A model generated the notes under the pieces. It did no database searches. It was not told the DNA's origin and saw nothing but the letters and a program-made list of their open reading frames with translations. A stretch of 63,868 nucleotides of DNA, counting the filler, from Reclinomonas americana ATCC 50394 (Eukaryota), in NCBI GenBank assembly GCA_048213135.1. It is 8 parts of 3 records of this genome, joined end to end, with 100 filler letters (N's around TTAATTAATTAA, not from the genome) between each part and the next. Parts side by side here need not be neighbours in the genome. Positions count along the whole stretch, not along the records: positions 14,627 to 42,017 come from PS015050.1; positions 42,118 to 47,534 come from PS015050.1; positions 47,635 to 53,698 come from PS015050.1; 5 more parts are not named here. The stretch is one strand, 5' to 3'. The position numbers were made by a program, and so were the translations under genes. This document shows positions 11,901 to 60,216 of this stretch, one piece after another. Numbering within the stretch: position 1 is the first letter of the stretch; each line of letters starts with the position of its first letter.

Positions 11901-11957
<57 letters not shown>

Positions 11958-14260: not shown

Positions 14261-14292
<32 letters not shown>

Positions 14293-26948: not shown

Positions 26949-26968
26949 NNNNNNNNNNNNNNNNNNNN

Positions 26969-28149: not shown

Positions 28150-28628
28150 NNNNNNNNNNNNNNNNNNNNNNNNNNNNNNNNNNNNNNNNNNNNNNNNNNN
28201 NNNNNNNNNNNNNNNNNNNNNNNNNNNNNNNNNNNNNNNNNNNNNNNNNNNNNNNNNNNNNNNNNNNNNNNNNNNNNNNNNNNNNNNNNNNNNNNNNNNN
28301 NNNNNNNNNNNNNNNNNNNNNNNNNNNNNNNNNNNNNNNNNNNNNNNNNNNNNNNNNNNNNNNNNNNNNNNNNNNNNNNNNNNNNNNNNNNNNNNNNNNN
28401 NNNNNNNNNNNNNNNNNNNNNNNNNNNNNNNNNNNNNNNNNNNNNNNNNNNNNNNNNNNNNNNNNNNNNNNNNNNNNNNNNNNNNNNNNNNNNNNNNNNN
28501 NNNNNNNNNNNNNNNNNNNNNNNNNNNNNNNNNNNNNNNNNNNNNNNNNNNNNNNNNNNNNNNNNNNNNNNNNNNNNNGTCGATTCAGTGTGTTGTCGGT
28601 GCGCTGCCTCCGCTCATTCGTCGTGCAG

Positions 28629-31030
28629 CAATCACAAGATTCGGCGAATGAGTTTGAGTGGCCTGGTGTCGACGATTGCCGGCACTGGTCAGCCCGGAGC
28701 CTTGGATGGATCCGTTTCATCAGCCATGTTTTCGAGGTATGCCGAGATTCCTCGAGGGCATTTCAGTTGTTGCCACTCTTAAACCCGTGCGACACGAGCA
28801 GTCCCACAACCGTTGCCGTGCACCAAGCCACCGGCGACATTTTTGTCGTGGAGGTTTGATGGCTCGATCTCTCACAGCGTGCATCATCATCATCGTCTCA
28901 TGAGATGTGCCTCCAGGACGGTAACGGGGATGTAAGGCGCATCAGTGGCGCCACAGTAGATACCCTGTCGATGGATCTAAATTTGTCTGCACCTCGCGGA
29001 TTGGCCATCACCGCAAGCCAGCTGATGTACGTGGCCGACAGCGGCCACCACACTATTTTGTACGTACTGGTCACACACACGCAATTCGTGCACCATCTGC
29101 TGTGAAGTAGGTTGTCACCATGCTGCACTTCCCAGGTCTGTGACACTAGTCGGTGCAACGCAAGTTGTTGCTGGCGCGTCCGGTTCAGCTGGTAGTGCAT
29201 ATGGCACGGGTTCCGCTGCGCGGTTCAATACGCCTAGCGCAGTGGCACTGGCGAGTGCAGACACGCTACTGTACGTTGCAGACACTGGTAACCACACTAT
29301 TCGAAAAATCGAGCTGTTCTCCACCTATGTTTCTACACTTGCTGGGTCCCCTGGCAGCGCCGGCTCTGTGGATGGGGCGGCGACCAGTGTGGCACGATTC
29401 AGCAGTCCGGCGGGTATCACCGTCGGTTATGATGGCGTGGTTTACGTTGCAGATGTTGCGTCACTGTTCGACCCATTTCCTGCAGTAGAGCCGAGAGACT
29501 CAGCCGCGTGCTGTCGCAGACAAATAATTCCACCATTCGGCAAATCGACGTCACCAGAGCGCAAGTCAGCACCTTGGCCGGCTTGGCTACAGTACCAGGC
29601 GCCGCTGATGGATATGCTGGGTCATCGCGACTCAATTTGCCGGTATGCATGATCAATGTCTTGCCAGAGGCCTTCCCGCAGAATTGCTAACCAGGGTGCT
29701 CACTCACAGAATGGCGTGGCCTGGATTCGAGGGGGCCTGTTTGTGGCTGGTGCTGCTCGTAGAAGTCGACGCTCTGCATGCACTAGCGTTCATTCTCACC
29801 CTCTCCTCCCCCTTTTGGCAGATTCGAGCAACCACACCATTCGTATTCTCGCACTCCAATCCTGGCGCCTGAGTGCCATGCCACCCAGCAGCTCTGTAGC
29901 GACTCGTATCGCATCGTTGACCACGTCGCTGTTTCCATCTGCGACGTACTATTATCGCGCCACCAACGTCGTATCAGCACGAGGCTTGATTGTTGCTTTT
30001 TCCACTCGCTCACCGCTCCAGTCTGTCAGTTGCGCACGATGACCACCCTGTCCTGTCTGTGTATTGCTTTCCCTGACGGGTCTTCTCCCGCATCATAGCC
30101 GCGGGAATTGTGAGCACGCTGCCTGTTGGAGATGTCACTGTCTCCAGTGCCACTCTGGTCGGCAGGGCGCAATCCAGTGGCGTGACTCCGAGGTTTGAGC
30201 TGTCGACTTCGCCGTTCGACGCACAGCCGGTGGTGGCGACCCTAGCTGGGACACCCGGTTCCTCCAACTCCGCCGACGGCGTGGGACCGGCGGCACGATT
30301 TGGCGGGCCAGCTGTTGCGTTCTTCTTTTCCTCCCTCAGCTACGAGCAGGGTAACTGATGCCCGTGTCCTCTTACAGGCTGGCGCCGCCGACGACATTGG
30401 CAACGTCTTCATCCCGGATTCGGAGTGAGTGCCCGAAAAGCACAGCGTGCATCACTTGTACTATCTCACTTACGCATGTCACTTTAGCGCCCAGACAATC
30501 AGAAAGATCAGTCCCGGAGCCGTCGTGTCAACAATCGCCGGGGTGTACAACTTTCAAGGCCTGCTAAACGGACCAGCGGCGTCTGCCTTGTTCCGCTAGT
30601 CCGTGTCACCGCTCGCAAGCCGTTGTTTCGGTGCACAGATATGCTAACTGCTGTCTGTCGCAGCCCGAATGCAGTGGCGGTGGATCCCCTTGGAACGGAG
30701 GTGTACATCGCTGACAAAGTTACTCGCACGCTAAGCTCAGGATTCAATTGATGCCCGTTGTGCTCAAGCTCTCTTACCGCAGAGCAACGACGTTGTGCGA
30801 AAGCTTATTGACGGGCAAGTCACCACGCTGGCCAGTGGCCAGTTCTCTGGTCCGCAGGGTATCGCAATTGACTTCACTGCTCGTGTGGCCTATGTTACCC
30901 ATCAAGGACCTCTACGGTTCGGCCCCACATGCCTGCAGTTGTTTTCGCTAATAGCCTTGCCGAACACGCGAGTCTTGTAGGCGCATCAACATCGATAATG
31001 GAAATATCACAACTCCAACAGTAACGTCCA
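28629..31030 (+). CDS. NHL/FN3 protein, distal exons, 3'-partial
   Basis: ARFNTPSAVALASADTLLYVADTGNHTIRKI, LFPSATYYYRA and VVATLAGTPGSSNSADGVGPAARFGGP. Confidence 0.9.
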
Positions 31031-32728: not shown

Positions 32729-33635
32729 TCATCGAGACTGTCGTCGCACGAGTGACTTGGGTGTCAGCGAGCCAATGGAGGCCGAGGGACCTGTCGGCCC
32801 TGGCGACCGTGACTTGCGCTGGCTGGCACTGACCAGTGCGTTGGCGTCGACGCCGCTGCCGTTGCTGAGACCGGATGGGCTGGCGGTGCTGCCTCCGCCG
32901 CTCTGGTACACGCTGGCGACCAGAGTGGGTGAGAGACGCATGGGTCCACCTCCAGCTGCTGCAGGACTGCGGGCCGACGAGAGGGGCGAGCGAGAGGTCT
33001 GGCGAGCCACCACACTCGTGCCGACTCCACTGCCACGCACGCCTACGGTGGGCGAGTGTGGCCGCGAGTTGCGCGGTGAAGGGTTGCCAGAGTCCGGTCG
33101 CGAGTGCGATCTTGACGACGGCCGCGAGTTGGTCGGCGTCCTCGACAGCGGGCTGCGCACCGGGCTCATGCTGGTGGTGAGGCCGGAGGCACGCTGGTGC
33201 ACGTAGACTTGGTCCACCAGGTGCTTCTTTTGCGTGCGGAGGGTGGAGCCCTGGGGAGGGGAGAAAGAGAGATATTTAGAATAAGGAGAACAAAGGCAAA
33301 TGAATAACACTTCAAAAGTCTCTCTAGAGGCAATCACTCACTGTTCCTCACGCACACAGTGAGAAGAGAGCGAGAAAGAGAGAGAGACAAACTCCAAGCA
33401 ACAGACTCACAATCAGAAAGCCTGTGCGCGTGCGTGCGAGAGAGACGAGCGAGGAGAGAGACAGCCACACAGAGAAAGGGGCTGAACACACGCATCAGGT
33501 GCACCCGCAGAGAAGAGCGCGGGACAGAGAAGAGAGTGTGAGGAAGACAAAACTTAAAGCAGATAGAAAAATTGAAACCGGCACACACAGAGAGCAACAA
33601 AGACACCGTCAGAGAGACAACGTGCTCGCGCGACA

Positions 33636-33670
<35 letters not shown>

Positions 33671-34699
33671 CGACGAACACGACAGACTGGCAGATAGACT
33701 ACCAGAGACACAGATGTATAATACACACCGGCACAAGACACACGCAATTGCACAAAGAATTAATGTGCGCAAGGAGGAGACGGAGAGAATGGCAGACAAA
33801 CTACAGACACTCAAACAGAGCAACAGAGGCGCAGCAAGAGAGACAACATGCTTGACGACACAAGCAGAGACACAGACAGATCACTGAAACTGTGCAAAGT
33901 GAATGGCAGACAAACACCAGCAACACACCTGCACAAACAAGGCAAAGAGCAGAGAAAGACAGCCACTTCCCGCCTCCTCCCTTTCCCTATCCCCTCCCTT
34001 CCCCCTTGTCCCCTCCCACGCACCTGCTTCATGTACGCCTTCTTCAGCGCATCCACCTGCTCCTCCAACAACGCATACCGCGCCTCCGCCTCCTTCACAA
34101 ACACCACATTACGGTCGTGCTTGCTGGTGACGGTCGCCAGTTGCTCCTTGACCATCTGCAGCTCCATGTCCTTCTGACGCAGCAAATGGTCGCGCTCCTG
34201 AATCACGTCCTCCAGCGGCTGCAACACCACGCGCATCTCCGCAATGCGGAACTCGTACGTGGCGATCTTCTCCAACAACTGCCGCCGATCCTCCTCGTTC
34301 TTAAGGGCCAGCGCCGCCGCCTGCTCCTCTTGACCGCGCAGTTTCGCGTTCAGCTCCGCCACCTCGCTCTCCAGCGACACGATTTGTGCCACCTTTTGTG
34401 AGGTGAGCTCCTTGGCGCTGGCGCACGTGTCCGTCATGGCCGACAGGCGGGACATGAGGTCGTTGATTTCGTGGGACAGTCGGTCCTTCTCCGCCTTGTG
34501 GACCTCCTGCGAAAGAGAACGAAGAAATGAGCGAGAAGGAACGATGCAAAGGAAAAGACAGAGAGAGAAAAAAAGAAAGAAATAGGAGAACAATAATGAG
34601 AAAGAACAGGGGAAGACGAACAGAGGGAGCAATCGAGCAGCGAAAGGAGCAGAACATGAAGAAGGAGAAGGTGCAAAGAAGACGAACAGAGCGAGAGGA

Positions 34700-34762
<63 letters not shown>

Positions 34763-35753
34763 ACACGAGACACATTTGCATTCTCGACAAGAGTACCGCT
34801 TCTCAAGGAAACAGCAATAAAAACACACTCTCTCTCTCCCTGCCTCCCTCTCCCTTCCCCGACTGCTTTCTCCCTTTCCCTCATCACTCACATCCTTGCG
34901 TCGCAGCCGCTCATTAATATCATCATCGATGCGCGCAAACCGCTCCTGCGCCTCCTTCTGGAAGCCCTTGAACTTGGCGTCCACCTTCTCCGTCTCGCGC
35001 GTCTGCAGCTTCAAGTTGCTCTCCGTCTCCTGCAACTTGGCCGCCAACTCACGATTTTGGTTCTCCAACTCGTGCGCTCGCAGCGTGTCGCCACCGCGGT
35101 GCTTGCGGAAGGCATTCAGCTCGTGCGTCATGTCTGTGCCACTCAGTCAATGATAACGAAAGAAACAAAGACTCTTTTCCACACACACACACACCTATCG
35201 CGCGCTTCTCCGCAGCCGCCACTTGCTGCTTCAGCTCGTCGTTCTCCTTGCGCACGTCATCCAGCGACCATGTGATCGTGTTGATGCGCTCCTCTAGACG
35301 ACCGACCGTGGTCGCACCCTCCTCCAGACGCTCCTTCAGCACGTGATTCTCCTGCTCGAGTGCTGCGCGCTTTTCCACAATCTGCGAGCAAAAAAAGGGA
35401 GCACGATGATGAGCAGCATGAAAATGAGAGCAAGGAAGGGACAGGACAACCTCATGAATATCACGGAAATGAGACGAGACATCTCTCTCCCACACTCTCA
35501 GAACAGAACACGCCAAACCATCAGTTTCTCTCATACAGTCAGAGAACACAGTCCAGACATTCTCTCGTGAACACAGACCAAATATTCTCTCATTCTCACA
35601 CTGTACCATCGCAAGCCAACAAAGATCGCAGAAACGCACAGACACATCAATGACGTTTAACACAAACGCACTCCTCCTTCCCTTCTCTGCTTCAGTGAAA
35701 CCCACACATAATAACACACACACACACGCACACACAACAAGATATCCTCGCTA

Positions 35754-35838
<85 letters not shown>

Positions 35839-35841
35839 GAA

Positions 35842-35886
<45 letters not shown>

Positions 35887-38800
35887 GAGAGAGAAGAAGA
35901 AGAGAGANNNNNNNNNNNNNNNNNNNNNNNNNNNNNNNNNNNNNNNNNNNNNNNNNNNNNNNNNNNNNNNNNNNNNNNNNNNNNNNNNNNNNNNNNNNNN
36001 NNNNNNNNNNNNNNNNNNNNNNNNNNNNNNNNNNNNNNNNNNNNNNNNNNNNNNNNNNNNNNNNNNNNNNNNNNNNNNNNNNNNNNNNNNNNNNNNNNNN
36101 NNNNNNNNNNNNNNNNNNNNNNNNNNNNNNNNNNNNNNNNNNNNNNNNNNNNNNNNNNNNNNNNNNNNNNNNNNNNNNNNNNNNNNNNNNNNNNNNNNNN
36201 NNNNNNNNNNNNNNNNNNNNNNNNNNNNNNNNNNNNNNNNNNNNNNNNNNNNNNNNNNNNNNNNNNNNNNNNNNNNNNNNNNNNNNNNNNNNNNNNNNNN
36301 NNNNNNNNNNNNNNNNNNNNNNNNNNNNNNNNNNNNNNNNNNNNNNNNNNNNNNNNNNNNNNNNNNNNNNNNNNNNNNNNNNNNNNNNNNNNNNNNNNNN
36401 NNNNNNNNNNNNNNNNNNNNNNNNNNNNNNNNNNNNNNNNNNNNNNNNNNNNNNNNNNNNNNNNNNNNNNNNNNNNNNNNNNNNNNNNNNNNNNNNNNNN
36501 NNNNNNNNNNNNNNNNNNNNNNNNNNNNNNNNNNNNNNNNNNNNNNNNNNNNNNNNNNNNNNNNNNNNNNNNNNNNNNNNNNNNNNNNNNNNNNNNNNNN
36601 NNNNNNNNNNNNNNNNNNNNNNNNNNNNNNNNNNNNNNNNNNNNNNNNNNNNNNNNNNNNNNNNNNNNNNNNNNNNNNNNNNNNNNNNNNNNNNNNNNNN
36701 NNNNNNNNNNNNNNNNNNNNNNNNNNNNNNNNNNNNNNNNNNNNNNNNNNNNNNNNNNNNNNNNNNNNNNNNNNNNNNNNNNNNNNNNNNNNNNNNNNNN
36801 NNNNNNNNNNNNNNNNNNNNNNNNNNNNNNNNNNNNNNNNNNNNNNNNNNNNNNNNNNNNNNNNNNNNNNNNNNNNNNNNNNNNNNNNNNNNNNNNNNAC
36901 GGTGCTCCGTGGCCTCGCTGTTCAGCCGATCCAAATCCTCCTGCTGCTTGCCCGCCTTGGTGGCGGTGCGGTCGCGCTCGCGGGTGACCTTGGTGAGGTC
37001 GGCCTCCAGCGTGCGCGCACGCTCTCGCAGCTTGACAAGCTCCTGCTCCATCGAGTCGGCACGAGCACGCAGCTCCTCCGCCTCCTTCTCCACCGTGGCG
37101 CGGCGACGCTTGGCGACGCCCAGCTCGCGCTGCATGTTGGCAATGCGCGTGCGCGCATCCTCCAACTCGGCCTCGGCGTCCACCAGGCGCTGACGCACCG
37201 AGGTGTACTCGTGCTCCAGCATGCCGTGCCGTGAACTCGCCGTGCTCAACTCGCGCTTGGTGAGACCGAGACGACCGCGCAGCTTGCTCTGCTCCACCTC
37301 CTGCGAGGCCTTGGTCTCGCGCAGCCGGTCGGCCTCGGCCTGCGCCGATTCGTACATGGTGCGCAACTCAATGAGGGTGGCGCGGTCCTCTTGCATGGCG
37401 CGCATCAAGTCGCTCTCGTTGGCGCGCGACTGTGCCAGTTGCGCCTCGAGAGTGGCCAGACGCTGCGCCGAGTCGTCGAGGGTGGTGCGCGTCTCCTGCA
37501 AAAAACGAAGAAAGGTGGTGTGAGGCGCAAAGGAACATCACTGTATGATACACAGAGTTGTCACCGCACCTCGGTGTGAATAATCAGCGTCTGCTTCGCC
37601 GCTCCCTCGTGCATCAACTCGGTCTCCAACTGCCTGTTGGTGGCCGATTCCTGCTGGAACGCCAGCTCCAGCTGTCGATTCTGCGCCAGCACGTCCTCCA
37701 AGCGCTTCACCAGACCGTCGGCACGCTCACGATCGGCCTCGGCAACCAATTGCAATCGACCTACACCAGCACAGGTTAATCATCCAAAGTAAACCTCCTA
37801 TTCCACAAAACACACACGGACCTCGCTCCTCACGTGCGCCGACCAACTCCGTCTCCAACGCCACCACCTGCTGTCGTGCCTTCTCCACATCACTGGTCAA
37901 CTCGGCAATGCGGCTGCGCTCCTCCGTCAGCTGATTGCGCATGCGCGACACGGACGCATCGGCCGTAATCTTGGCGTCCGTCAGCGACTCCACCTGCTCC
38001 TTCAGCTCCTCCACCTGCATACGCAGAGCCTCGCGCTGGCGCTTGTCGGCCTCCAACTGCTCGCTCTGCTGGCGCACCTGCGCACCGGCCTCGCCGAGCG
38101 TCGACGCGTGCTTGATCACCAACTCACGCTTGTCGACCAGCTCCAAGTGCTGCTGATTCAGCTCATCGGTCATTCGCGCCACATCGGCCTCCAGTCGCTG
38201 AATGCGCTCGGCATCGGCGCGTTGCTGGTGCTCGGCATCGGCACGCGCCTGTTCCACCTCAGCCTTTAGCCGTGCACACTGGTCATTCAGAAGGACGACC
38301 TCCGGAGCCGACTGCGTTGCTTGCGAGCGAATCAGCGTAATCTCAGCCGCCAGTGCGTCTCTCTCCGCCGCCAACTTGCGAATGCGACCGTCGCTCTCCG
38401 CCGCCTGATCCTCGCGCTTCACAAACTCGTGCTGCCAGCAAGTCACAGGTGAGTCTGTGCTACCTCCCACCACCCTCTCTCTCTTTCCATCTCCCNNNNN
38501 NNNNNNNNNNNNNNNNNNNNNNNNNNNNNNNNNNNNNNNNNNNNNNNNNNNNNNNNNNNNNNNNNNNNNNNNNNNNNNNNNNNNNNNNNNNNNNNNNNNN
38601 NNNNNNNNNNNNNNNNNNNNNNNNNNNNNNNNNNNNNNNNNNNNNNNNNNNNNNNNNNNNNNNNNNNNNNNNNNNNNNNNNNNNNNNNNNNNNNNNNNNN
38701 NNNNNNNNNNNNNNNNNNNNNNNNNNNNNNNNNNNNNNNNNNNNNNNNNNNNNNNNNNNNNNNNNNNNNNNNNNNNNNNNNNNNNNNNNNNNNNNNNNNN

Positions 38801-41800
38801 NNNNNNNNNNNNNNNNNNNNNNNNNNNNNNNNNNNNNNNNNNNNNNNNNNNNNNNNNNNNNNNNNNNNNNNNNNNNNNNNNNNNNNNNNNNNNNNNNNNN
38901 NNNNNNNNNNNNNNNNNNNNNNNNNNNNNNNNNNNNNNNNNNNNNNNNNNNNNNNNNNNNNNNNNNNNNNNNNNNNNNNNNNNNNNNNNNNNNCCGCTCA
39001 CCTGCAACTCGCCGTCCAGCTTGCGCAGCTCGGCGTGCTGCTTCACCAACTCCTGCTCCAGACCAGCCATGCGCTGGCGTGCACTGTCGAGTGCCGCCTG
39101 CGCACTGTCGCGCTGCCGCTTGGCCTCTCGCAAATCCTGCTCCAACACAATCGTGTTGGTCTTGCGATCGTCGGGGCCACTCGACAACGCCGACAGTTCG
39201 CCCTCCAGCTCCTTGTTGCGCCGCCGCACCGCCTCGTTCTCGTGGCGAATCTCGCCCAGCGCGCTCTCGTGAGCCGCCAGCGCCTCCCGCAGCTCATTCA
39301 CTTCGCTCTCCGCCGCCGCATGCTGCGACTGCTCCTGCAACAGTGCCGCGTGCAACTCCTCCGCCTGCGTCCGCGCCTCGTGGACCGCCGATCGGTGCTC
39401 CTCCTGTGTCGTCTCCATGGCCGCGATGCGCTCGCGAGCGCGACGCAGTGCAGCCTCGGACTGCTCGAGCTGCGCACGGACTTGCTCCACATCGGCCTTG
39501 CCGGCCTGCAACGAGGCCTCCTGCCGCTCAATCAGCACCGCCTCCAGCTCGGCAATNNNNNNNNNNNNNNNNNNNNTCGCGACTGGTGAGCGTCGTACTC
39601 GGTCTCCAGCGCCTCAATGCGGCGACGAGCCACCGCCAAGTCGTCCTCCAAACCGGCCACATGCATCGACTGGTGCTCGCTCTGCTCCGTCAACTCGTGC
39701 TCACGCTGCGTCATGTCTAGCAGCTCCTGCTGCACCGTCAACAGCGTGGCCTGCACCGACTCGCGCGCCGCACCCGACTCGAACAGCTGCTGCTGTAGTT
39801 CGCCAATGCGCGACTCGTAGGCCTGCGCCAGCAGTGCCACCGAGGCCTTGTCGCTGCTGTCGGTGGCGGCGGTGGCCTGCTCCAGATGCGAGCGCGTCTC
39901 GTGCAACTCGTCAGCCAGTCGCGCCGCCTCCGCCCGCGACGCATCGGCGTCGGCCTGCAGCGCGTTCACCTGTTGTCGCAAATTCGACAACTCGTGCAGC
40001 TGCGAATCAATCGTCGAGTCGCGGGCGCGCAGTGACTCGGCGTTCTCGCGTGCGGCATTCTGCGCCTGTTCCCGCTGATCGCGCAACTCGGATTGCAGCT
40101 GTTGATTTGGGGGGAAGGAGGGATGTAACAAGAGAGCATGAGATAATTGCAGCCAAAGGAACTCAAGCATCGCCCTCTGTCATACCTTGTTCTTCTGATC
40201 GCGCAGCTGCTCCACCGTCTCCATCATCGACTGCAGGTCGCCACGAAGCACAGTGAGCTCGGCCGCTTGCGAGTTGAGCAGCGAGTCCTTTTGGCGCATC
40301 ACCGAGTCGCGATCGTACGCATCGGTGACGGCGCGGCTTGAATTCTCACGCTCGCGACTCAATTGCGCCTCGTAGTCGGTCACCAGAGCCGCCATCTCGC
40401 CCTTCAGCGACTTGATGTTGGCAGTCAGATCCGACACTTGCACGCGCAAAGTGTTGTTGTCCTCGTTGTAGCGATCCGACTCCAAACGCAGCACGCGCAG
40501 CTCCTGCTGCACCGCATTCAGTTCACCGGCGGCCGGTGCGTGACGACCCGTCAGCGTCTCCAGCTGCTTCTCCAAGTCGTTGATGCGCTCCTGCAGTGCC
40601 GCCGAGTCGGCACCGGACTCTTGGAGGACGCGATTCTCCTCGCGGATCTCCTCCAGTTGCGACTCCAGACGCGCTCTTTCCTGCTCGAGTGCCTGCGTGA
40701 TGTGTGAGTACATCAGCTAATGAAAAGAAGAGACACACAACTCTAGCTCTCCTCGTCTCTCCTCTTACGCACAAATTCTCTCTCTATTCATCCCTCTCTC
40801 TGTCTGCCTCTCTCTTTCTCCCTCTCTCTCTCACACACGCTCTCTCTTTTCATCCCACTCTCCCTCCCTCTGTATGTGTGCGTGTGTCGCACCTCCACTT
40901 GCTGCTCCAACTCATAGATGCGCTGCTCGAGGAAGGCGGTGCGCGAGTTGGTATCCGACCGGCTGTCGATCCAGTAGTTGGGCACGGGGCAGTTGCGAAT
41001 GCGCTGCGCCCGTGAGGCATACACCAGATTGTTGTGCGTCTCCGAGGCCTGCTCCGGGTCGGCGCCCACACACGTCACCATCAGCGTGCGGCAATTGCCA
41101 CCGAACGAGTGGTGCAGGAGGGAGGTGAGTTTTGAGTCGCGGTACGGGATCTGTGCCGGCTGCACGTTGCCGCCCTGCGCCAGTGCCAGAATGACGCGGG
41201 AGAGCACGAGAAGGTCCTTGTTGTTGCGGCTGTGAGAGGAGCCTGTGGAAGGGGGGAAGGGGGAAGGGGAGAAGGGGGAGGGAGAAGGTGAGGGAGAAGA
41301 GAAGGAGGAAGTGGAAAAGGAGAAGAGAAGGGGGAAGAGCAAGGGGGGAAGAGCAAGGGGGGAAGAGCAAGGGGAGAGGAGACGAAGGGGGGAGAGACGA
41401 ACGGTNNNNNNNNNNNNNNNNNNNNAGAGAGAGGAGAGAGAGGAGAGCAAGGGGAAGAGCAAGGGAGAGGAGCAAGGGGGAGAGCAACGGTGGAAGAGCG
41501 AAGAGAGGACGAGCAAGGGCGAGAGCAAAGGGGGACGAGCAAGGAGGAACAGCAAGGAGGAACAGCAAGGGGGAGGAGCAAGGGGAAAGAGCAAGGGGGG
41601 AACAGCAAGGGGGAAGAGCGAAGTGAAGACGAGCAGGGGCGAGAGCAAAGGGGGAAGAGCAAAGGGGGAAGAGCAAAGGGGGAAGAGCAACGGGGGAAGA
41701 GCAAAGGGGGAAGAGCAAAGGGGGAAGAGCAAAGGGGGAAAAGCAAAGGGGGAAGAGCAAAGGGGGAAGAGCAAAGGGGGAAGAGCAAAGGGGGAAAAGC

Positions 41801-44415
41801 AAAGCGGGAAGAGCAAAGGGGGAAGAGCAAACGGGAAGAGCATGGGAGAAGAGCGAAGGGGGAAGAGCAGAGTACAAGCATAACACTTGAGACCGCATTT
41901 CACCATCCTCGCTTTCGTGGTCTCTTCCCCCCAGTGCTCTTCCCTTCTCCCCATCCCCTAGCTCTTCCTTCCCCCATGGAGAGGTAGATCGAGAGAAAGT
42001 CACTTCGACGAGTAGAANNNNNNNNNNNNNNNNNNNNNNNNNNNNNNNNNNNNNNNNNNNNTTAATTAATTAANNNNNNNNNNNNNNNNNNNNNNNNNNN
42101 NNNNNNNNNNNNNNNNNCGTTTCGAAACATCCAACATGATTCTCTTTCCTCTCCACCCTTCCCCTATTCTCCCCCGTTATTCACCTGCCAGATCCACAAA
42201 ATGGAACTTGGAGTACGTCGCCCGTCGATCACCCATCGAGCGCACACGCAACGACACCGTGGCCACGAAATGCGACTGCGCCAGCACCGCCTGCTCAATC
42301 TCGGGCGTGGGCAACCCACGTGCCGCACGCTTCGCATGATCGTGCCTGCAGCGTGCAAACGAGCCAAACAGCAAATCCACCGCCGAAACCGCGTCATGCA
42401 CCTGCCGTTCGGTGATTCCCTCGGCGAAGAACCCGACCGACAGCGATCCACGAATGCGCAACGCCTGCTGCCTCGCCACCGGCTTGCTCGACGCACGACT
42501 TGCAAACTGCGGCGACGACACAGGCGAGGTGGCCGACAGCGGCGACGTGGCCGACTCATTCCCACTCGTCGACGACGACGTTGGCGACGTGCCAGCAGCT
42601 CCCTTTGCACGCACAGGCGATTGCGCTGCAGCTCCCAACGATCCCAGCAACACATCCTCCATGCTCTCCGGATGNNNNNNNNNNNNNNNNNNNNNNNNNN
42701 NNNNNNNNNNNNNNNNNNNNNNNNNNNNNNNNNNNNNNNNNNNNNNNNNNNNNNNNNNNNNNNNNNNNNNNNNNNNNNNNNNNNNNNNNNNNNNNNNNNN
42801 NNNNNNNNNNNNNNNNNNNNNNNNNNNNNNNNNNNNNNNNNNNNNNNNNNNNNNNNNNNNNNNNNNNNNNNNNNNNNNNNNNNNNNNNNNNNNNNNNNNN
42901 NNNNNNNNNNNNNNNNNNNNNNNNNNNNNNNNNNNNNNNNNNNNNNNNNNNNNNNNNNNNNNNNNNNNNNNNNNNNNNNNNNNNNNNNNNNNNNNNNNNN
43001 NNNNNNNNNNNNNNNNNNNNNNNNNNNNNNNNNNNNNNNNNNNNNNNNNNNNNNNNNNNNNNNNNNNNNNNNNNNNNNNNNNNNNNNNNNNNNNNNNNNN
43101 NNNNNNNNNNNNNNNNNNNNNNNNNNNNNNNNNNNNNNNNNNNNNNNNNNNNNNNNNNNNNNNNNNNNNNNNNNNNNNNNNNNNNNNNNNNNNNNNNNNN
43201 NNNNNNNNNNNNNNNNNNNNNNNNNNNNNNNNNNNNNNNNNNNNNNNNNNNNNNNNNNNNNNNNNNNNNNNNNNNNNNNNNNNNNNNNNNNNNNNNNNNN
43301 NNNNNNNNNNNNNNNNNNNNNNNNNNNNNNNNNNNNNNNNNNNNNNNNNNNNNNNNNNNNNNNNNNNNNNNNNNNNNNNNNNNNNNNNNNNNNNNNNNNN
43401 NNNNNNNNNNNNNNNNNNNNNNNNNNNNNNNNNNNNNNNNNNNNNNNNNNNNNNNNNNNNNNNNNNNNNNNNNNNNNNNNNNNNNNNNNNNNNNNNNNNN
43501 NNNNNNNNNNNNNNNNNNNNNNNNNNNNNNNNNNNNNNNNNNNNNNNNNNNNNNNNNNNNNNNNNNNNNNNNNNNNNNNNNNNCAAGAAGAGCCCACTGA
43601 CGCAGATCTCGAACAGCTGCGGCGGAATGTCCTTCACGTGGGAAACAACGAGTGAGCGACCAGGGAGGGAATCAGCACTTGCCACGCGCGCGAACTGCGA
43701 CTACCTCCACGATATCAAAGAGGCGCTGCAAGACGCGCGGGAACATGCCCGCATCCGGACCCTCCGGCGCACCAAACAGCGTGTACTAATGCCACACAGA
43801 CACACGTCATGACATGACACGACACGCAGAGACAAGTCGTCACATTGTGCGCAACTGTCTTGCCCGTGCGCTCATGTCCATACGAGAACAACGTGCAGTT
43901 CTTGCCCGCGGCAAAGTCCACCACCATCGGCTCCACACATCGATGGAAGAAGGCGCTCTGTGCGTGTGCGTGCACGCGTGCGTGTCATTTTCGTTCATGT
44001 CCACCATAGACGCACTCTCTTTCTGTCTCTTTCTCTCTCTCTTACAAACCTGTGAGGCATTCTCGCCAAAGACATAGGCAAAGCGGAAGCTCTCGTCATT
44101 CGGCACCGAGACGTGCACCTGAAAGCGGGAAAGACGGTTAAATTTTCAGTTGCACACTTTGGTCGGCACTCTCGTTATGTCACTCTCTTTCTCATTCACC
44201 TCTGAGGGCGATAACACATGCACGTGCGAGTTCACAGGCGACGAGGCAGGTGCCACGCGAACAGCAACATCAAATTCGTTGGTGGCCACTGATTGAGTCG
44301 GAGAACCTCCTGAGGATGCAGGCGAGGAGTGCGATGTTGTCACTGGCAGGGCCAGAGGAGGCACAGTGGCGGCCGCTGACGCAGAGTCAGTGTCGCCAGT
44401 GCTGCCTGCGCTCAT
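32729..44415 (-). CDS. Kinesin-like protein A: divergent N-terminal motor, very long coiled coil and Ser/Pro/Arg-rich tail
   Basis: FDVAVRVAP, FRFAYVFGENASQ, NCTLFSYGHERTGKT|YTLFG, SKFHFVDLAG and IPYRDSKLTSLLHHSFGGNCRTLMVTCV...ETHNNLVYASRAQRIRNCP. Coiled-coil exons at 34023-40690. Stop at 32731-32729. Confidence 0.88.
41330..41870. repeat. Intronic minisatellite, 14-15 nt unit (gggggaagagcaaa)n
   Basis: Tandem units visible inside a kinesin A intron. Confidence 0.9.
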
Positions 44416-44830
44416 TGTGAGGTGATTGTGGGGTGGGGACAATGGACAGTTCGGCGGCGGGGAGCGAGTGCTATTGTCCGACGCCGAAAGAAAGCAAGCA
44501 CTTGAGTCGAAAAGAAAAAAGTGCAGTCAGCACCAAAAAAAATATAGAATGCTCGGGCATTGCAGTGCGCTTCAGATCAGAGGCCGACGAAGCTGACTTC
44601 GACGCCGACGTCGACGTTGGCACTCCAGAAAATTAGCAATCTCCGCTGCGCATGCCACTGCTAGCTCGCCATTGCACGCATGTTCTCCCCTGCCCCCCTG
44701 CTCGCCTTGTATCACCCGCTCTCCTCCAGTCTCGTGTCCTCTCGACGTCCATGTCCGAAATCTCCAATAGGCAAAAGTTATCGTCAAGCGGTCGCGCGAG
44801 ACCTCTCATCTCCACACAACAAACACCGCG
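44416..44830. promoter_or_regulatory. Putative bidirectional promoter between the two kinesin genes
   Basis: 415 bp of gap-free sequence between divergent ATGs at 44415 (-) and 44831 (+). Function is inferred from geometry only. Confidence 0.6.
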
Positions 44831-47800
44831 ATGGCCGACGACAGTCGTGCCTTTTCCGTAATCGCGCGAGTTGCGTCACGAAAAAAACACACACATACAT
44901 TGTTCGATCTCAACGGTGCTCTCACTCACGCGCACACTCTCTCTCACACACACACGCAGGTTCTCCCATGGCCTCCACACACAGCAAGCGCCACAGAGCC
45001 AACGTTACTCACACACTCACACCGCTCACGGATCACACTCACACACAATCGCTCACACGCTTTTCTCTTCACAGAATCTCTGTCATCTCTGACTCATCGC
45101 TGATCTTGCAAGCACCGCCTGCGCCACCCGACTCGCCCTCATCGTCTACAGTAGCACCACCACCCGCACCCTCATCGACCACGTACAGATTCGATCACGT
45201 GTTTACAGCTTCGTCATCATTGTCATCGTCGATTGGTCCACTGGCAAGAGCGTTTGTCGATCGCGGCGAGCACGCTTCACTGCTGCTGACAGGCTCCAGA
45301 AAGAGCGGGAAAACACGGGCGGCGTTTGGAGTCGATCCGTGGACGTCGCAAGGCGATCGGGAGAGCGATCGCGAGGAGAGCGCTGTGCTCAGTGTCCTCT
45401 CGCATGTGTGTCAGCGATTGGAGGTGCGGTTACTGCTCTGCCTCCTGTGTGTATGTACGTGCTCTTATGTAGGTCTGTAGGCGGTGCATGGAGCTGATGT
45501 TGATTCGTACTCGTTGCGGTGGTCGCTCATGTGGCTCAATCCCGGTGCGCGCTCAAAATGCTTCATTCAGTCGCTCTTGGCGTGTGTGCGAGCTGATCGC
45601 TCCTTGCAGATTCGTCGGTGGAGGATCTGCTGGCGATGCCGCTCGGTGGACTGCCGAGTGGACCGGCCCCGGCGCAGTCGTCGTCTGCGAGTCATTCGCG
45701 ATCGGCGAGTGGAAGTCGACCGCAGCAGTTGCGTCTCGTGTCGTCGATCATCGCCTTCTCTCTATCCCTTCTCACACACACGGATGTCGTGCAGTGTGCG
45801 CGGCTCGAGTTCCAACTCGGGATCGTTCTCGTCGCAGACGTCGTCGACGGCATTGGCTGGAGCGCCAATGCCGTCGACTCTGGCGGTGATGAGTGGGGCG
45901 TCGCTGGGCAGTCTGGTCGATGCGCTGCCGGTGCCGCGCATTCGTGGGGACACCGAGGGCGGTTTTTATGTGGAGAATCTGTCGAGTCGACTTGTGCGTG
46001 ACGCGCGCTCGACGGCCATTTGTGCGGCGCGTCGGCTGTACGCCTCGTTGTTGGCCGATATGCGGCGGCAATCGTCGCAGTTGCGCTCGCACGTGTTTTT
46101 CACGCTGCAGCTGCGCCAGCGCGCAGTTCGCGGTCGACCTGCCACCGATTCCACGTTCCATGTGGTGGATCTGGCGGGTCACGGGGAGGGGCAGGGGCAG
46201 GATCGCAAGGACTTGCTGGTGTTGAAGAGAGTAATCATGGCGTTGAATCGAGGTAAGGACAAGTGGGGGGAAAGGGGGTGGCGTGAGGGATTGAGCGGTG
46301 CTGACGACGATACAGGCGATCCGTCTGTGCCGTACCGCGATTCAAAACTCACCTCCCTTCTTTACAATGCTATTGGTGGTCACTGTCGCACAGTTGCGTG
46401 AAGGAGGGGAAGGAGGAGAATGACGCGGCGGAGGGGGAAATACTGCTTTGTAGTGAGCAATATTGCGAGTGATTTTGGTCATGCGAGGGGTGTTTTTCCT
46501 TTCATGTTTCACTGCACGATTCCTCACTTGTCCCCTTGCTGTTGCCCGGGTCTCTTGCAACCCATGTCTCTCTCGCTTTTGCTCAAAGGGTTGTTCATGT
46601 GTCTTCTCGGCTATCCCCCTCGCGATTCTCGTCATTGGTCTCTGTCCATTCTCCATTATCCTTGTTGTCTTTCTTTCGCTGTTGCTGTTGCTGTAACCCA
46701 ATCTCTTCCTCCTTCGCTCTCTCTTTCTCTCTCTCTCCCTCTAAATTTTACACTTTCCCTTTGTGTTCTCCCTGAAAGGGTTGTTCTTGTGTCTAAGTCT
46801 CTTACTCTGATACTCTCTTACCTCTGCCGCTGATCTGTTCCTCTTTGAGTCATACTCCATTTCTTTTTTGTCTTACTTTCCCTCGCAGCTGCAATAAGCC
46901 ACTCTCGTCGGGCTTCGTGCGTTTATGCCATCGTATCTCTCCCTTCCTCCTCTGACTCGCTCTTCGTGCATCAGCTTCTCGGCTATCCTCACCCACTCTT
47001 CCGGATTCACTCCCTTCACTCTCATTCTCCTCCGGTCTATCCGCTCGCCCTTTCATGTCCTCCTCCCCCTCGCTTCCTTCCCTTCCTTCTTCTTCTTCTT
47101 CTTCTTCTTCTTCTTGTTCTTGTTCTTTTTCTTTTTCCCCTCCTCCTCTCCTCTCCTCCCCTCCTCACCACCTCTTCTTCCTCCTCCTTCCCCTTTTCCC
47201 CCTCTCCTTGCCCTTCCACCTCCCTCTCATTCACCCTTCCCCTTCTACGCAGGTGCTGATGTTGTGCCTGTCGCCGGACCCCAATCTTTACCGTGAAACA
47301 CAACTGGCACTCGGGCAGGCCGTGTCAGCAGCCGAGATCCGCAACACGCCAACGCCCATGCTGTGGGACGACACGGTGGTGGACGTATTCGCAGTCGCAC
47401 GTCTGGAACGGCAGTGTGGCGAGCTGGAGGCGCTGAACGAGGATCTCATGAGTCAACGCGACGTTCTGGAACTGCAGCTGGCAGCGCAGCTGAGACCAGA
47501 CCGACGCGCCTCCACCGCCGACATTACCGATCCGNNNNNNNNNNNNNNNNNNNNNNNNNNNNNNNNNNNNNNNNNNNNTTAATTAATTAANNNNNNNNNN
47601 NNNNNNNNNNNNNNNNNNNNNNNNNNNNNNNNNNACGCCGCTGATTGAGATGCGCCGGAAAATGTCGGCAGTGGAAGGTGCGCTCCAATTGTGTGCCTTC
47701 TTTATCGACAACAGCACTCACCTCTCTCTCTCTCTCTCTCTGATTCAGGTGAGGTACAAGTGGCGGCCGAGTTGGCACGCAAGCAGGGCGAAAAGGAGAT

Positions 47801-50067
47801 TATCCGCTTGCAGAGCGAGAACCGAGTCAAGCAGAAGCAACTGCAGGCGGCACATCTTGCGCGGTCGGAGATGGAGAACGAGCTGAAGAGCGTGCAGGCA
47901 CGATGCGCGGAGCTGGCGGCCAAGAACGAAGCATTGCAGGTGCAGGTCAATGATCTGAAAACGCAAGCACTGCCGGTGCGTTTGTCACGTGCATGTGCTA
48001 GATACTCCACATGCGTTTCGCTCACTGTCTTTCTTCAATCGCCAGCCATTTTCTCCAATGGCGAGCCCGCTGTCGTTGAGTCCCTCCTCCGCCGACACCA
48101 ATGCCAAGGTGCAGCTGGAGCAGGAGCGGAGTGAGTGGCGCAATCGTGAGCGGTCGATGAAGGAGCAGCTGGTGGAGTTTGAGCGTCGTCTGGAATCGGC
48201 GGCGGCACTGGAGGACATGTTTGAGCAGGCGGCCGCACATCGGCAGCGCCTGACGACAGAGAACACGGCGTTGGAGTTGCGGGTGAAGCAGCGTGACGGC
48301 GAGATTGCGCAGTTGAGAGTGCAGCTGGAACGTGTACAGCAGCTGTACCAGGAGGCGAGGACGGCAGCCGCCGAGCAGCTTCAGCAGCAGCAGCAACCGG
48401 TGATGAATGGACATCACACGCCCGACGCCGACAAGGAGAGATTGCGCGCCCTGGAGCAGACTGTGGCCGAGCTGCGCGCTCAGCTGGCCCGCGGTCCCAC
48501 TCCCACGGGCGGGGTCGACGTGCAGCGAGCGCATGCGCGTGCCACCGTGGCGGAGGAGTCGTTGCGCAAGCAAAAGGAGCTGTACGAACAGCTGCGCGTG
48601 CGTCTGCGTGTGGCCGAGTCGGAGGCGCAGGGCGCGAAGCGCGAGGCGGCTGCTGCGTGCCGTGAGTTGGACATGGAACGCGACATGCATCGCGGGACCA
48701 GGGAGCGCCTGGCCAGCAGTGAGGCGCTGGTGCGCCGGCTGGAGACGCGNNNNNNNNNNNNNNNNNNNNNNNNNNNNNNNNNNNNNNNNNNNNNNNNNNN
48801 NNNNNNNNNNNNNNNNNNNNNNNNNNNNNNNNNNNNNNNNNNNNNNNNNNNNNNNNNNNNNNNNNNNNNNNNNNNNNNNNNNNNNNNNNNNNNNNNNNNN
48901 NNNNNNNNNNNNNNNNNNNNNNNNNNNNNNNNNNNNNNNNNNNNNNNNNNNNNNNNNNNNNNNNNNNNNNNNNNNNNNNNNNNNNNNNNNNNNNNNNNNN
49001 NNNNNNNNNNNNNNNNNNNNNNNNNNNNNNNNNNNNNNNNNNNNNNNNNNNNNNNNNNNNNNNNNNNNNNNNNNNNNNNNNNNNNNNNNNNNNNNNNNNN
49101 NNNNNNNNNNNNNNNNNNNNNNNNNNNNNNNNNNNNNNNNNNNNNNNNNNNNNNNNNNNNNNNNNNNNNNNNNNNNNNNNNNNNNNNNNNNNNNNNNNNN
49201 NNNNNNNNNNNNNNNNNNNNNNNNNNNNNNNNNNNNNNNNNNNNNNNNNNNNNNNNNNNNNNNNNNNNNNNNNNNNNNNNNNNNNNNNNNNNNNNNNNNN
49301 NNNNNNNNNNNNNNNNNNNNNNNNNNNNNNNNNNNNNNNNNNNNNNNNNNNNNNNNNNNNNNNNNNNNNNNNNNNNNNNNNNNNNNNNNNNNNNNNNNNN
49401 NNNNNNNNNNNNNNNNNNNNNNNNNNNNNNNNNNNNNNNNNNNNNNNNNNNNNNNNNNNNNNNNNNNNCGTGCACGAACTCGAACCGAATCAGCATCTGC
49501 TTGAAGCGCAGCTTGAAGCCTGCCGCGCCAACGTGGAGGAAATGGCGGGGAGGTTGGAGGCCTTGCACGAGGCCGGCGCCGGGCGGCACGTGGTGGTGCG
49601 AGTCGTTGCGTTGTTGTTAATGGTGCTTCGATATGATGGTGTGATTCTTTGCTCACTGTCCGAGCAGGCGGCAAACGGGGACGCGGATCACTACGGCGCC
49701 GATTCCAAGAATCAGCGCGTTGCCACGCTGGAGCAGGAGCTGGCGGCGAGCCGATTAGAAGTGGCAGAAGTGCAGCGACAGCTCAAGCATGCGTTGAATG
49801 AGTTTGAGCAGCGCAGTTGCGTCGTGTGCACGCGCGGACTCGGAGGCGCTGTGCTAACTCTCCTGCGCAGTGCTCTATTATCGGGAGGCGGGTGAGAGGG
49901 CGAGGCAGGCGGAGGAGAAACTGGCGGCGTTGAAGGAGGCGTTTGTGGCACAGGGCCGCACACTGCGCTCGCAAAAGAGACATTTACAGGATGTGGTGGA
50001 GGCCAAGGACCGCGAGCTGGCCATGCAGCACCCGTCGCCACCGAAACTACATGCGTCGAGAAAGTAG
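44831..50067 (+). CDS. Kinesin-like protein B, paralogue of A: divergent motor plus coiled coil
   Basis: MADDSRAFSVIAR|VLP, YRFDHVF, LLLTGSRKSGKT, GGFYVENL, LRSHVFFTLQL, FHVVDLAG and VPYRDSKLTSLLYNAIGGHCRT|VLMLCLSP. TAG at 50065-50067. Confidence 0.88.
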
Positions 50068-50124
50068 TTGTAGCCATTTATGAGTTAAATATCTTGTTGC
50101 GAACTGGCGATCTCCTGTCGTTTA

Positions 50125-53042
<2,918 letters not shown>

Positions 53043-53816
53043 CTGTTGAGGGGAGGGAGGGGGGAGGAAGGGGAGAGAATGGGGGAAGGGTGAAATAGGG
53101 AAGGGTTAGAGAGGGAAGGGAGAGGGGGAAGGGAGAGGGGGGAGGCAGAGGGGGAAGGAAGGGGAAGGAAGAAAAGAGAGGAGCGAGGAGAGAGGAAAAG
53201 AGAGAAGAGAGAGAGGAGAATGAACGAACGAGAATGTAATAAAAGAGAACGGAAACGGAGACAGAGACGGTGGGAAGTGAGAACTGAGAGGAAGTGAGGC
53301 GAGGAGAGGATAGAACAGTGTTGGCGGGGAAGCATGCTAATAGAGGGAAAGAGAAGAGTAAAGGAGAGAGGAGAAGAGATGGGCTCATGAGAGGAGATCA
53401 AGGAAGGGAATGAGAGAAAAGAAAATCAATGATGTGAAGAATAAAACTCGAGAGCGAAGTGAGACAAAGAGGGGGAAGGGAGGGAGAGAGCAGAGGAGAG
53501 GAGAGAAGAATAAAAGGAAGGGAAGGGAAGGAATACAAGAGAAAGGAAGTGGGAAGGAGGTTGGCGGAGAGAGGAGAAGTGATGCGTGCACATGATGGGA
53601 GCAGGCGACAGTACAAGAGACAAGTGAAACAATACGCCTGAGGAATGAAGAAATGAGAAAGAGAGAATATGCCAATCGCGATCAAAGAAGCAAGACAANN
53701 NNNNNNNNNNNNNNNNNNNNNNNNNNNNNNNNNNNNNNNNNNTTAATTAATTAANNNNNNNNNNNNNNNNNNNNNNNNNNNNNNNNNNNNNNNNNNNNTT
53801 CTTCCTCCCTCCTTCC

Positions 53817-54235: not shown

Positions 54236-57042
54236 AACGAATCCACCAACGTGATGGAGTCGGAAGAGAACGAATTGGTCCGCGGCCGCCTCGTGCAGAT
54301 CGACGAGGACTCGCTTCGTGATTTCGACGACTCGGTGAGTTGCTCTTCCATTTTCGCCGCCTCCTCCTCACTCTTGCCTCACTTGTGCCACTCTCCAGGC
54401 GATTGTGTTGACTGGAACTGTGGCCAGCGAGGAGGTGGCGAGAGCAATTGCTTCGAGAGGCGTCACGCTGCGGTGCGTAATCTGGTAGTAACATATCGAG
54501 TGTGCATGAGCATGTCTTTGTGTCACATCCGATTGTGAGTCTCCTCTCGCGTTTCCGACTATGTGAGCGCATGTGTGTGATGCTGCGCGGTTCTGTGTTG
54601 CCTCAATGCCTGCGAATCTGTACGATGTGTATGTCTACGTGTACGTTGTATGCGACAACTTGTGAAGCAGTGTGTGAATATGTGTGCATCTTGCACATGT
54701 GTATGATATCATGAACGCGTTGCATTCTGTGTGCTTTCTCGGCGAGTCACTTCGCTTCATGACTGTCAATGACAGTATGAGCATGTGACAGTATTTTTTG
54801 TGCACGTGTGCATGACTGTGTGTGGATATTGCGTGTGCTTGCTGCGATTCTCATCTTGCACACCCGTGACTACTCTCTTTACCTCTTCCCTCTTCTCTTC
54901 CCCGTTTTCCCTCTTCTCTCCCCCGTATTCCCCCTCCCTCTCCCTCTCCCCCTCCCTCTCCCTCTCCCATCTCCCTCTCCCTCTCCCTCCCCCCTCTTCC
55001 TCTCCCTCACCACCTCCCTCCAGCGCCGTCCACCGCCTGTACGCCGTCGCCGACTCGATCGACTCGCTCGTAGAACAATTGCAACGCGACACGACCTTTG
55101 TTGCGTCCGTTCCCCCGTCACCGCACCCTATCCCACCACCTCACCTCCTTCCCCCCTTTCTCCCAGGCCAACGGCATGCCCGACGACGACGAACCCTCGG
55201 ACGGCGGCTACTCCCTCACCTTCGACTCATTTCACCGGTACTTCACCAAGGAGGACGTGGCGCGCCTCTACGAGCAATTCGAACCCGTCTACTTCCCCGG
55301 CCGCGCCAACCTCAAGTCACCGCGTCATCGTTTCTCGGTGCTGATTGACGGCCCGCGCTCCCGCTACTACTTTTGCAAGTTGATTGTGGAGAGTGACCGG
55401 CAATCTGTCGTCAAGTTCTCGTTGAAGAAGCGGCCATACATTGGCACGACCAGCATGGACGCGGAGCTGGCGCTTCTCATGTCCATCTCGGGACTGGTGC
55501 GACCGAATTACCTGGTGCTGGATCCGTTTGTCGGCACTGGGAGTGTGTTGATTGCGGCCGCGCATCACGGCGCCATGGTGATGGGGGCGGAGTTGGATGG
55601 TCGTGTGTTGAAGGGCACTGTGGGCGAGCGCAAGGGTCGCTCCATTCTCGACAATCATCGCCATGTTGCGTGCGAGGGGGGATAAGGGCAAGAGCTACCC
55701 CTACTGCTTTCTCCATCTCCGCTTCCCTTCTTTTCCCCCTACTCCTTACGCCTTCCTCTTCCCCTGCTTGACCCCCGTTCTACTTCTCCTTTCGCCTTCT
55801 TCTTTTCATTTCCCAAGTCCCTTCCCTCATCCTTTCGCCACTCTCTTTCCTCCCTCGCTTGCCCTCTCCATTCTACATCTCCTTTCGCCGTCCCTTCCCT
55901 CGTTTCCTTTCGCCACTCACAGTCTTCTCCCACTTGCCCTCCCTTTCCTCTCCCTTTCCTCTCCATTCTACATCTCCTTTCGCCTTCCTCTCTTTCCTCT
56001 CCCTTTTCACCTCTCTCTTTTCCTTTCGCCGCTCTCTTTCCTCCCCGCTTGCCCTCTCCCTTTCCTCTCCTCCCTTTCCTCTCCCTTTCCTCTCCCCACT
56101 TTCCTTTCGCCACTCTCTTTCCTCCCTGCTTGCCCTCTCCATTCTACATCATCTTCTTTCGCCTTCCCCCTTTTCCTCTCCCCTTTCCCTTCCCCTCTTT
56201 TCCTTTCGCCACTCTCATTTCTTGCCACGTGCGCAGTACGGTCTGCCACCACCGCTGGACCTGCTTGTCAACGACGCCTCGCAATGCATGTGGCGGCAGC
56301 ATTCGTGTGAGATGTTTGATGCGATTGTCACCGATCCACCGTACGGTGTGCGTGAAATGTCGAAAAAGGTGGGCAAGAAGGGCCGCGAGATCGAGGATTC
56401 TGTGCGCGATACCTTGTTGCGTCAGGCCCCCTTTCCTCCCCCCACCCCCTCTCCCCCATCGTTCGCTAATTGCCACGCAGCTGGAAGTCCGGCAAGCACA
56501 TTCCCCAGAAGGTCATGTACACGCTGGACAGAATACTTGAGGATCTGCTGACGCTCGGCGCCCGCACATTGCGTGTCGGCGGCCGTCTCGTGTTCTGGGT
56601 GCCGTCCACCCCCGAGTTCCACATCAATATGCTGCCGGAGCACGAGGGCATGCGTCTCGTCTCCGTGTGCGAGCAGTCGCTTTCGGAGCGCTACGGCAGA
56701 CACTTGGTGACCATGGAGAAGACCAAGGCGTGGGATGAGGTGGTGCGTGGTGCGCGGTGGCGACTGTCTTTTCTTGTTTGACTGTGAATCCTCAAACTGC
56801 TCTGGCCACAGGAACACCGCGGCGCCACATGGGTGGGCGACGAGCACGAAACAAGGCAGTTGTTGCTCACCAAGTTCCGCGAAGCGTACTATCTGCCAGT
56901 GCGCGCCGCTCGTCGCGAGTTTCACCAGAAGCGCAAGGAGGCGTATTTTGCACACGTGGCGGCGTCGGCGGCCGCGAAGGCGGCGGCAGCAGAGGCGGGC
57001 GATGCCAGTGGTTCGGGAGACAAGGTTGCTGGATCGGAATGA
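54236..57042 (+). CDS. TRMT11: tRNA (guanine-10-N2)-methyltransferase TRMT11/Trm11, 5'-partial
   Basis: FSLKKRPYIGTTSMDAELALLM, LVLDPFVGTGSVL, FDAIVTDPPYGVRE, LRVGGRLVFWVP and CEQSLSERYGRHLVTMEK. Confidence 0.93.
55820..56220. repeat. Intronic pyrimidine-rich degenerate tandem repeat (tttcgccactctctttcctccc...gcttgccctctcc units)
   Basis: Recurring blocks visible in a TRMT11 intron. Confidence 0.75.
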
Positions 57043-59633: not shown

Positions 59634-60107
59634 GTGAGTCGATGGGGAATGTGAAGGGGAAAGAGTGATTCAAAGGCTTGATTAAGAAGGACAGATTGGA
59701 AAGTGTGTTATGGGAAGAGTTGACAAGGGGCTATGGGGAAGGTATTACAGGTGGGGAACGGGTGAGTGGGAGGGATGACCAGGAAGCGTTGACGGCAAGG
59801 AGATGATGGGGAAGGGTTGATATAGAAGGGTCGATAGGAATGTTTTGAGGGGATGAGGTGATTGAAAAGCGATAACTGGGAGATGTGAGGTGAAGGGTTT
59901 GCGGGAAACGGATGATACATTAGGGATTATCTCTCTGTGTTTTTATGTCTCTCTCTCTCTTNNNNNNNNNNNNNNNNNNNNNNNNNNNNNNNNNNNNNNN
60001 NNNNNTTAATTAATTAANNNNNNNNNNNNNNNNNNNNNNNNNNNNNNNNNNNNNNNNNNNNACGAACGACGAGACGAACGAACGAACGAACGACGAACGA
60101 CGACGAC

Positions 60108-60216
<109 letters not shown>

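Follow-up and report, generated by a model that had tools for sequence, protein, structure and literature searches.

What kind of protein system is encoded where two atypical kinesin genes lie head to head in Reclinomonas americana ATCC 50394? The first-pass annotation of this locus had proposed an undescribed kinesin subfamily whose two members act as a heterodimer, possibly as a structural microtubule cross-linker. We followed up this proposal within the window, that is, the whole stretch of DNA that was analyzed (63,868 nucleotides, filler included).

Layout of the divergent gene pair

The two genes occupy a eukaryotic, intron-rich stretch interrupted by assembly gaps. Gene A, on the minus strand, and gene B, on the plus strand, have start codons at 44415 and 44831 and are transcribed apart, with 415 bp and not a single N between the two codons, as had been claimed. 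Repeats within this spacer are short, chance-like pairs, none of them long or symmetric. The gap-free segment 43584–47534 contains the first five exons of A together with the first eight of B, and because it spans the 5′ exons of both genes, the head-to-head junction is real sequence and a scaffolding or assembly artefact is ruled out.

Both exon models are predictions, built by hand on GT–AG introns, with one X counted per gap. Their frames are open as far as the stops at 32729 (A) and 50067 (B), yielding predicted proteins of at least 1926 and at least 961 residues; five gaps fall within the coding span of A and two within that of B, leaving both proteins incomplete, and in the model of B the donor near 45739 is uncertain. 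The frames are open over about 1900 and 960 codons, and the reading of A and B as pseudogenes was rejected. Several modeled introns of A and B (43856, 44050, 44869, 45003, 46392 and 49815) begin with GTT instead of GTR (for example gttgcg, gtttgt and gttact). Gaps such as 42018–42117 and 47535–47634 consist of 44 N, a 12-base AT spacer and another 44 N; the spacer carries stops in all frames, and these gaps are placeholders of nominal size only.

Membership of the kinesin superfamily (PF00225) is indicated by one exon of A (E 4e-22) and two of B (E 3.9e-6 and 3.3e-6). Altogether, five of the eight exon translations tested matched the Pfam Kinesin model (E 4e-22 to 0.11), just one of these single-exon matches exceeding the curated cut-off alone, and 150 distinct kinesin sequences among the solved structures were matched at E up to 0.001. 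Exon 3 of A, with the P-loop GHERTGKT, matched at E 1.6e-5, and for exon 3 of B, taken by itself, no Pfam match was found. The nearest Atlas clusters of the B exon that bears the loop-8 motif are kinesin without exception, and the last exon of B has weak coiled-coil neighbors there, under the recognition mark; the predicted structure of one B exon is of low confidence (pLDDT 57.5). Where A is interrupted by a gap of 909 N, B runs continuously from strand 4 into the xDLL motif, so this gap is expected to hide little or no coding sequence. The features of the locus are collected in the table.

Features of the head-to-head kinesin locus, in window coordinates
Feature	Position	Strand	Basis and content
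Spacer between the A and B start codons	44416..44830	.	415 bp; presumed divergent promoter, a putative function
Gene A	32729..44415	-	Exon model, composition, Pfam; N-terminal degenerate kinesin head, at least 1926 aa
A exons 1–5	43584..44415	-	44200-44415, 44050-44118, 43856-43957, 43705-43785, about 43584-43616
A exon with Ser-rich loop-8 insert and RIRG..GF motif	42185..42674	-	Follows the 909-N gap; also degenerate switch I and the beginning of switch II
A exon with short loop 11 and helix 4 (NKDLL)	40893..41242	-	Pfam Kinesin E 4e-22; also intact loop 12, helix 6, neck and first part of the coil
A coil-end motif common to B	33200..34110	-	Split by intron 33251-34023
Gene B	44831..50067	+	Exon model; N-terminal degenerate kinesin head, at least 961 aa
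B exon 3, P-loop GSRKSGKT	45075..45423	+	Motif reading
B exon with end of loop-8 insert and RIRG..GFY motif	45795..46252	+	Pfam Kinesin E 3.9e-6; also degenerate switch I and II, short loop 11 and helix 4 (RKDLL)
B exon with loop 12 and helix 5	46316-46392	+	Pfam and motif reading
B exon with strand 8, altered helix 6, neck and coil start	47253-47534	+	Pfam and motif reading
B last exon, coil-end motif common to A	49871..50067	+	Local alignment

The adjacent genes end about 55 bp from the stop of B and about 105 bp from that of A. By eye, the ranges 50120–53100 and 54250–62300 hold what we take to be a golgin-84-like coiled-coil protein with a C-terminal membrane helix, a TRMT11-like methyltransferase, a WD40 protein and an SSRP1-like gene. 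Farther away, 24600–29500 contains NHL-repeat exons whose orientation changes twice: plus as far as about 26800, minus in the piece 26969–28149 and plus again beyond the gap 28150–28578. Possibly a single large gene here includes one contig placed in the wrong orientation, or paralogs face each other. The ORF list also places an intron-containing M36-type metallopeptidase gene, with an HEWGH motif and a PA-like domain, at 9990–15854.

A derived motor domain and its relatives

When 1.84 billion representatives were searched with a profile made from overlapping exons of B and A, 22,606 of them matched; among the best 150, two unnamed fragments bear the signature described below: P0019 (rank 1, 226 residues, on a contig of 1050 bases) and P0142 (180 residues, on a contig of 1972 bases), both likely from other species. 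No named or full-length member of this clade was found by word-index protein searches, one of which returned 18 ordinary kinesins among 111 candidates, another 756 matches among 7999 scored, the 120 listed being annotated as, or judged to be, canonical kinesins (KIF21, KIF27, KIF12 and others), and a further one P0142 alone among 1541 candidates. A degenerate helix-4 DNA pattern searched against metagenome contigs gave five matches, all five unrelated to kinesin.

The motifs that had been listed as idiosyncratic to the pair are all present, but several of them are not special. Alignment with other kinesins shows that EDVLL/EDLL, PYRDSKLT and GGxCxT belong to kinesins in general, and the loop-8 motif RIRG..GF.E is common to KIF12-like kinesins as well: 8 of 291 sequences have its general form, R[WG]x4[GQE]F[YF] (five KIF12-like kinesins besides A, B and P0142), in a set biased by being composed of matches to our own A/B-derived queries. 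The features that are derived and common to A and B are a Ser-rich insert at the identical site in loop 8, the disappearance of SSR from switch I and of the glutamate from switch II, an aspartate in helix 4 and a PxPxxW neck. In addition, loop 11 comprises 6–8 residues in A, B, P0019 and P0142, about 12 below the usual length, versus 17–22 residues in 275 of the 279 sequences that could be scored. The pattern left 12 of the 291 unscored, among them a KIF26-like row and a diatom head, and because both of these have a short loop 11, this trait alone is not specific to the clade. The diatom protein, P0024, carries two kinesin heads per chain, the N-terminal one with the short loop and without the switch II glutamate; kinship of this head with the clade was rejected, as it groups with its own second head at 100/99, and its degeneration is of the same kind but arose independently.

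The catalytic and the microtubule-binding parts of the head have fared differently. Both P-loops conform to GxxxxGK[TS], and switch II reads DLAGSS in A, DLAGHG in B, DLSGDG in P0019 and DLAGQT in P0142, the glutamate being missing from all four. Switch I is lost in the four members, with a remnant RSH solely in B; its arginine is absent from three of four and kept in B. Measured against NxxSSRSH and DLAGSE with their Arg–Glu bridge, A thus lacks both the arginine and the glutamate, and B lacks the glutamate and the SS. At the microtubule interface (helix 4, loop 12 and helix 5), PYRDSKLT is intact in A and B, as is loop 12 in all four members, and the hydrophobic pattern of helix 4 is kept in both genes, with the asparagine preserved in A and replaced by arginine in B. 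Helix 6 is fairly normal in A and altered in B. The retention of loop 12, helix 4 and its derived aspartate in A, B and both fragments points to selection acting on the microtubule face of these heads. Each gene has one match to the helix-4 pattern, giving two in the whole window versus zero in 100 shuffles, a count that, since the pattern was derived from A and B, shows only the absence of a third copy there.

Trees of 46 and 38 motor domains were built with IQ-TREE under LG+C20+F+G4, the bootstrap of the first not being fully settled. In both, a branch supported at 100/99 separates A, B, P0019 and P0142 from all other rows, although all four rows are long-branched or fragmentary; the grouping agrees with the shared deletion and the private residues. 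Rather than falling into different known families, A and B therefore belong to the same clade, outside the families sampled, in a reference set that leaves aside kinesin families 3, 6, 10, 13, 17–20 and the X groups and in which family labels of unnamed rows were read from motifs. Whether the two are sisters has a less simple answer: B joins P0019 at 92/85 and in 280 of 300 bootstrap trees, and A in 4 of 300, yet A+B as plain sisters is not rejected (AU p 0.14).

The nearest group in both trees is KIF12-like (85/89 and 94/88, a placement below the starred threshold). Specifically, the clade is sister to the KIF12-like kinesins plus one kinesin-9-like fragment in 278 of 300 bootstrap trees, and to the KIF12-like kinesins without that fragment in 5 of 300. 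A kinesin-4 grouping appears in 1 of 300 trees, yet its AU p is 0.083; kinesin-4/10 is the source of most best matches in both protein and structure libraries, profile scores are split between kinesin-16 and kinesin-4, and diagnostic columns divide three to three. KIF26, represented by one long-branched row that we read as KIF26-like (P0018), joined the clade in 1 of 300 bootstrap trees. KIF17-type rows lie elsewhere in both trees, which, together with the lost switch motifs of A and B, speaks against kinesin-2. Judged from these sequences, the clade is best called an orphan, the trees leaning toward kinesin-16/KIF12 and kinesin-4 not being rejected. Of the proposed undescribed subfamily, what holds is that A and B appear to be paralogs of one apparently unnamed clade, whereas its parent family is split between kinesin-16 and kinesin-4.

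According to the accessible part of PMC2867816, kinesin-16 is restricted to ciliated organisms, and in its supplement KIF12 is kinesin-16A and KIF26 is group X7. The strings NKDLL and NKDML are absent from 11 supplementary files of that paper, a weak negative given that the alignments are perhaps gapped or trimmed. In the literature searched, most subscription papers lying outside its scope, we found no description of such a clade or of a head-to-head pair of kinesin paralogs.

The duplication itself is old, as had been claimed. The motor domains are 34.9% identical over 378 columns, their introns share no alignment column, and blastn between the genes gave short matches only, the best of 32 nt; on these grounds a recent duplication was rejected.

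Stalks, coil ends and candidate modes of action

Following the head, A continues with about 1335 residues of coiled coil, the shared coil-end motif and a basic, Ser/Pro-rich tail of 156 residues (20 Arg/Lys versus 2 Asp/Glu), and B with at least about 510 residues of interrupted coiled coil, the same motif and a very short tail. Long coiled coils had been reported for both, in agreement with the composition of the stalks and with generic Pfam matches (ten stalk and tail exons, one match marginally over a cut-off). The common tail motif likewise held up: over about 50 residues, A and B align with a local score of 102, whereas 1000 shuffles reach at most 64, and neither 32 other windows of the B stalk nor 255 other kinesins of more than 500 residues exceed 59. 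The rods are otherwise unalignable, the neck and this motif being conserved. From neck to coil-end motif the modeled distance is 1333 residues in A versus 501 in B, and with gaps taken at their nominal sizes the rods differ by at least about 590 residues; the B rod has two gaps, of which the one of 719 N could cut the difference by about 240 residues and the 100-nt placeholder contributes a share without bound, so that the mismatch is a model value. A complex prediction for the two coil ends (81 + 51 residues, no alignments, the A motif cut by its intron) scored 0.09, a value that carries no weight in either direction.

Our preferred reading, on which we stand about midway between belief and doubt, is that A and B are old paralogous pseudo-motors of a small, apparently unnamed clade that serve as static microtubule tethers or cross-linkers, each mainly as its own dimer. 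A coiled coil rises 0.148 nm per residue, and each head would thus sit on a rod of about 200 nm (A) or 75–110 nm (B), so that microtubules would most likely be tethered or cross-linked at two spacings. Probably, the coil-end motif either serves to close the dimer or is a binding site for a partner common to A and B. Second microtubule sites are often strongly basic; the basic tail of A is a possible site of this kind and, if it serves as such, A would be a cross-linker by itself. On this reading, the head-to-head layout would be what an inverted duplication left behind in a compact genome; it could give shared transcription without implying a fixed A/B complex.

The heads themselves are probably catalytically dead, anchors rather than motors. 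They would bind nucleotide and microtubules without a microtubule-stimulated ATPase cycle and, that cycle being lost, hold on without walking. The accessible text of PMC4383081 describes the kinesin-1 R203–E236 bridge as universally conserved, and reports that N255K uncouples the motor, with tight microtubule binding in all nucleotide states; B carries arginine at the equivalent position. In the part of PMC12005725 available, kinesin-1 E236A almost abolishes hydrolysis, while ATP still binds and the head stays on microtubules. Similarly, KIF26B, with degenerate motifs, binds microtubules constitutively and has no ATPase activity (PMC3387196, accessible portion). The suggestion of a structural cross-linker had been made for the pair as a unit; its structural, as opposed to motile, part fits the loss of both switch motifs.

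An obligate A/B heterodimer, whose chains would come in step from a shared promoter and dimerize by way of the neck coil, the coil-end motif or both to give a static cross-linker with two heads, the extra rod of A looped out or overhanging, seems doubtful to us. The genes do lie head to head, the neck and the coil-end motif are conserved between otherwise unalignable rods, and that motif could equally be a dimer seed for A and B. In addition, heterodimeric kinesins exist, namely kinesin-2, Kar3–Cik1/Vik1 and KIN-A/KIN-B (accessible parts of PMC10987093, PMC4338441 and PMC2213603), and the pairing of B with P0019 instead of A hints that A-type and B-type chains predate one species. However, rods that differ by several hundred residues between neck and tail motif make an in-register dimer awkward, the Kar3 and KIN-A/KIN-B precedents include one active ATPase head whereas A and B both look inactive, and plain A+B sisterhood is not rejected. 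The short spacer is also the rule in this neighborhood, as the adjacent gene ends show. The proposed retention of linkage comes down to adjacency in this one genome, for which an inverted duplication in place accounts without selection. That A and B form an obligate, co-transcribed heterodimer of two different dead, ATP-binding heads, conserved as an A-type/B-type pair in a poorly sampled lineage, we consider unlikely.

It is also quite unlikely that A and B are slow or regulated yet active motors with a rebuilt switch region, that is, ordinary long-stalk transport or spindle kinesins. Slow hydrolysis could persist, given complete P-loops and a retained switch II glycine; the DLAG core is retained, A has the helix-4 asparagine and a fairly normal helix 6, and B has the switch I arginine. 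Against this, the catalytic glutamate is gone from all four clade members, loop 11 is deleted and helix 6 of B is altered, and single mutations at such sites disable kinesin-1 (PMC4383081 and PMC12005725, in the parts accessible). Decidedly unlikely, in our view, is that the pair arose incidentally when degenerate kinesin-like genes multiplied in this lineage, its proteins, their heads decaying, serving mainly as coiled-coil scaffolds that work independently of microtubule binding. The long branches of A and B would suit such decay, but the open frames and the conservation of loop 12, helix 4 and its derived aspartate in A, B and both outside fragments argue against it.

Relation to known kinesin systems

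The finding holds, and what it describes is more specific than a plain duplicate: a clade, apparently without a name so far, of kinesins that are switch-less but P-loop-intact. Non-motile kinesins of separate origins are already known (KIF26, Vik1/Cik1 and KIN-B), and the clade seems to add one more separate origin, with a design in which the nucleotide pocket and the microtubule face are kept and the switch chemistry and loop 11 removed. It would offer a ready test of what a kinesin head does without switches. If A and B pair, they would be the first two-dead-head heterodimer found in the literature searched, which did not cover every wording; if they do not, they are a modest addition to kinesin diversity.

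Kinesin-16/KIF12 shares the loop-8 motif and is the nearest group in the trees, but in its rows loop 11 has full length and no catalytic motif is lost, and the same group includes a kinesin-9-like fragment. Members of kinesin-4/10 (KIF4, KIF7/27 and KIF21) have long coiled-coil stalks like those of A and B, combined with canonical catalytic motifs and another loop-8 motif. In Kar3–Cik1/Vik1 and trypanosome KIN-A/KIN-B, a non-catalytic kinesin-like head is dimerized through a coiled coil with a related chain; one partner is active and the dead head has no nucleotide site (PMC4338441 and PMC10987093, accessible text). In contrast, A and B have a P-loop in both heads and the switch II glutamate in neither, so the combination of one active and one non-catalytic head is not what they present.

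The closest functional parallel is KIF26A/KIF26B (kinesin-11 in the accessible portion of PMC3387196), which like A and B has an N-terminal head, altered P-loop context and switches, a shorter loop 11 and an intact loop 12. KIF26 differs from the pair in keeping the switch II glutamate, at least in the row examined, in its degenerate P-loop and in having no long coiled-coil rod. By this analogy, A and B most likely work as KIF26 does, binding microtubules without ATPase-driven release.
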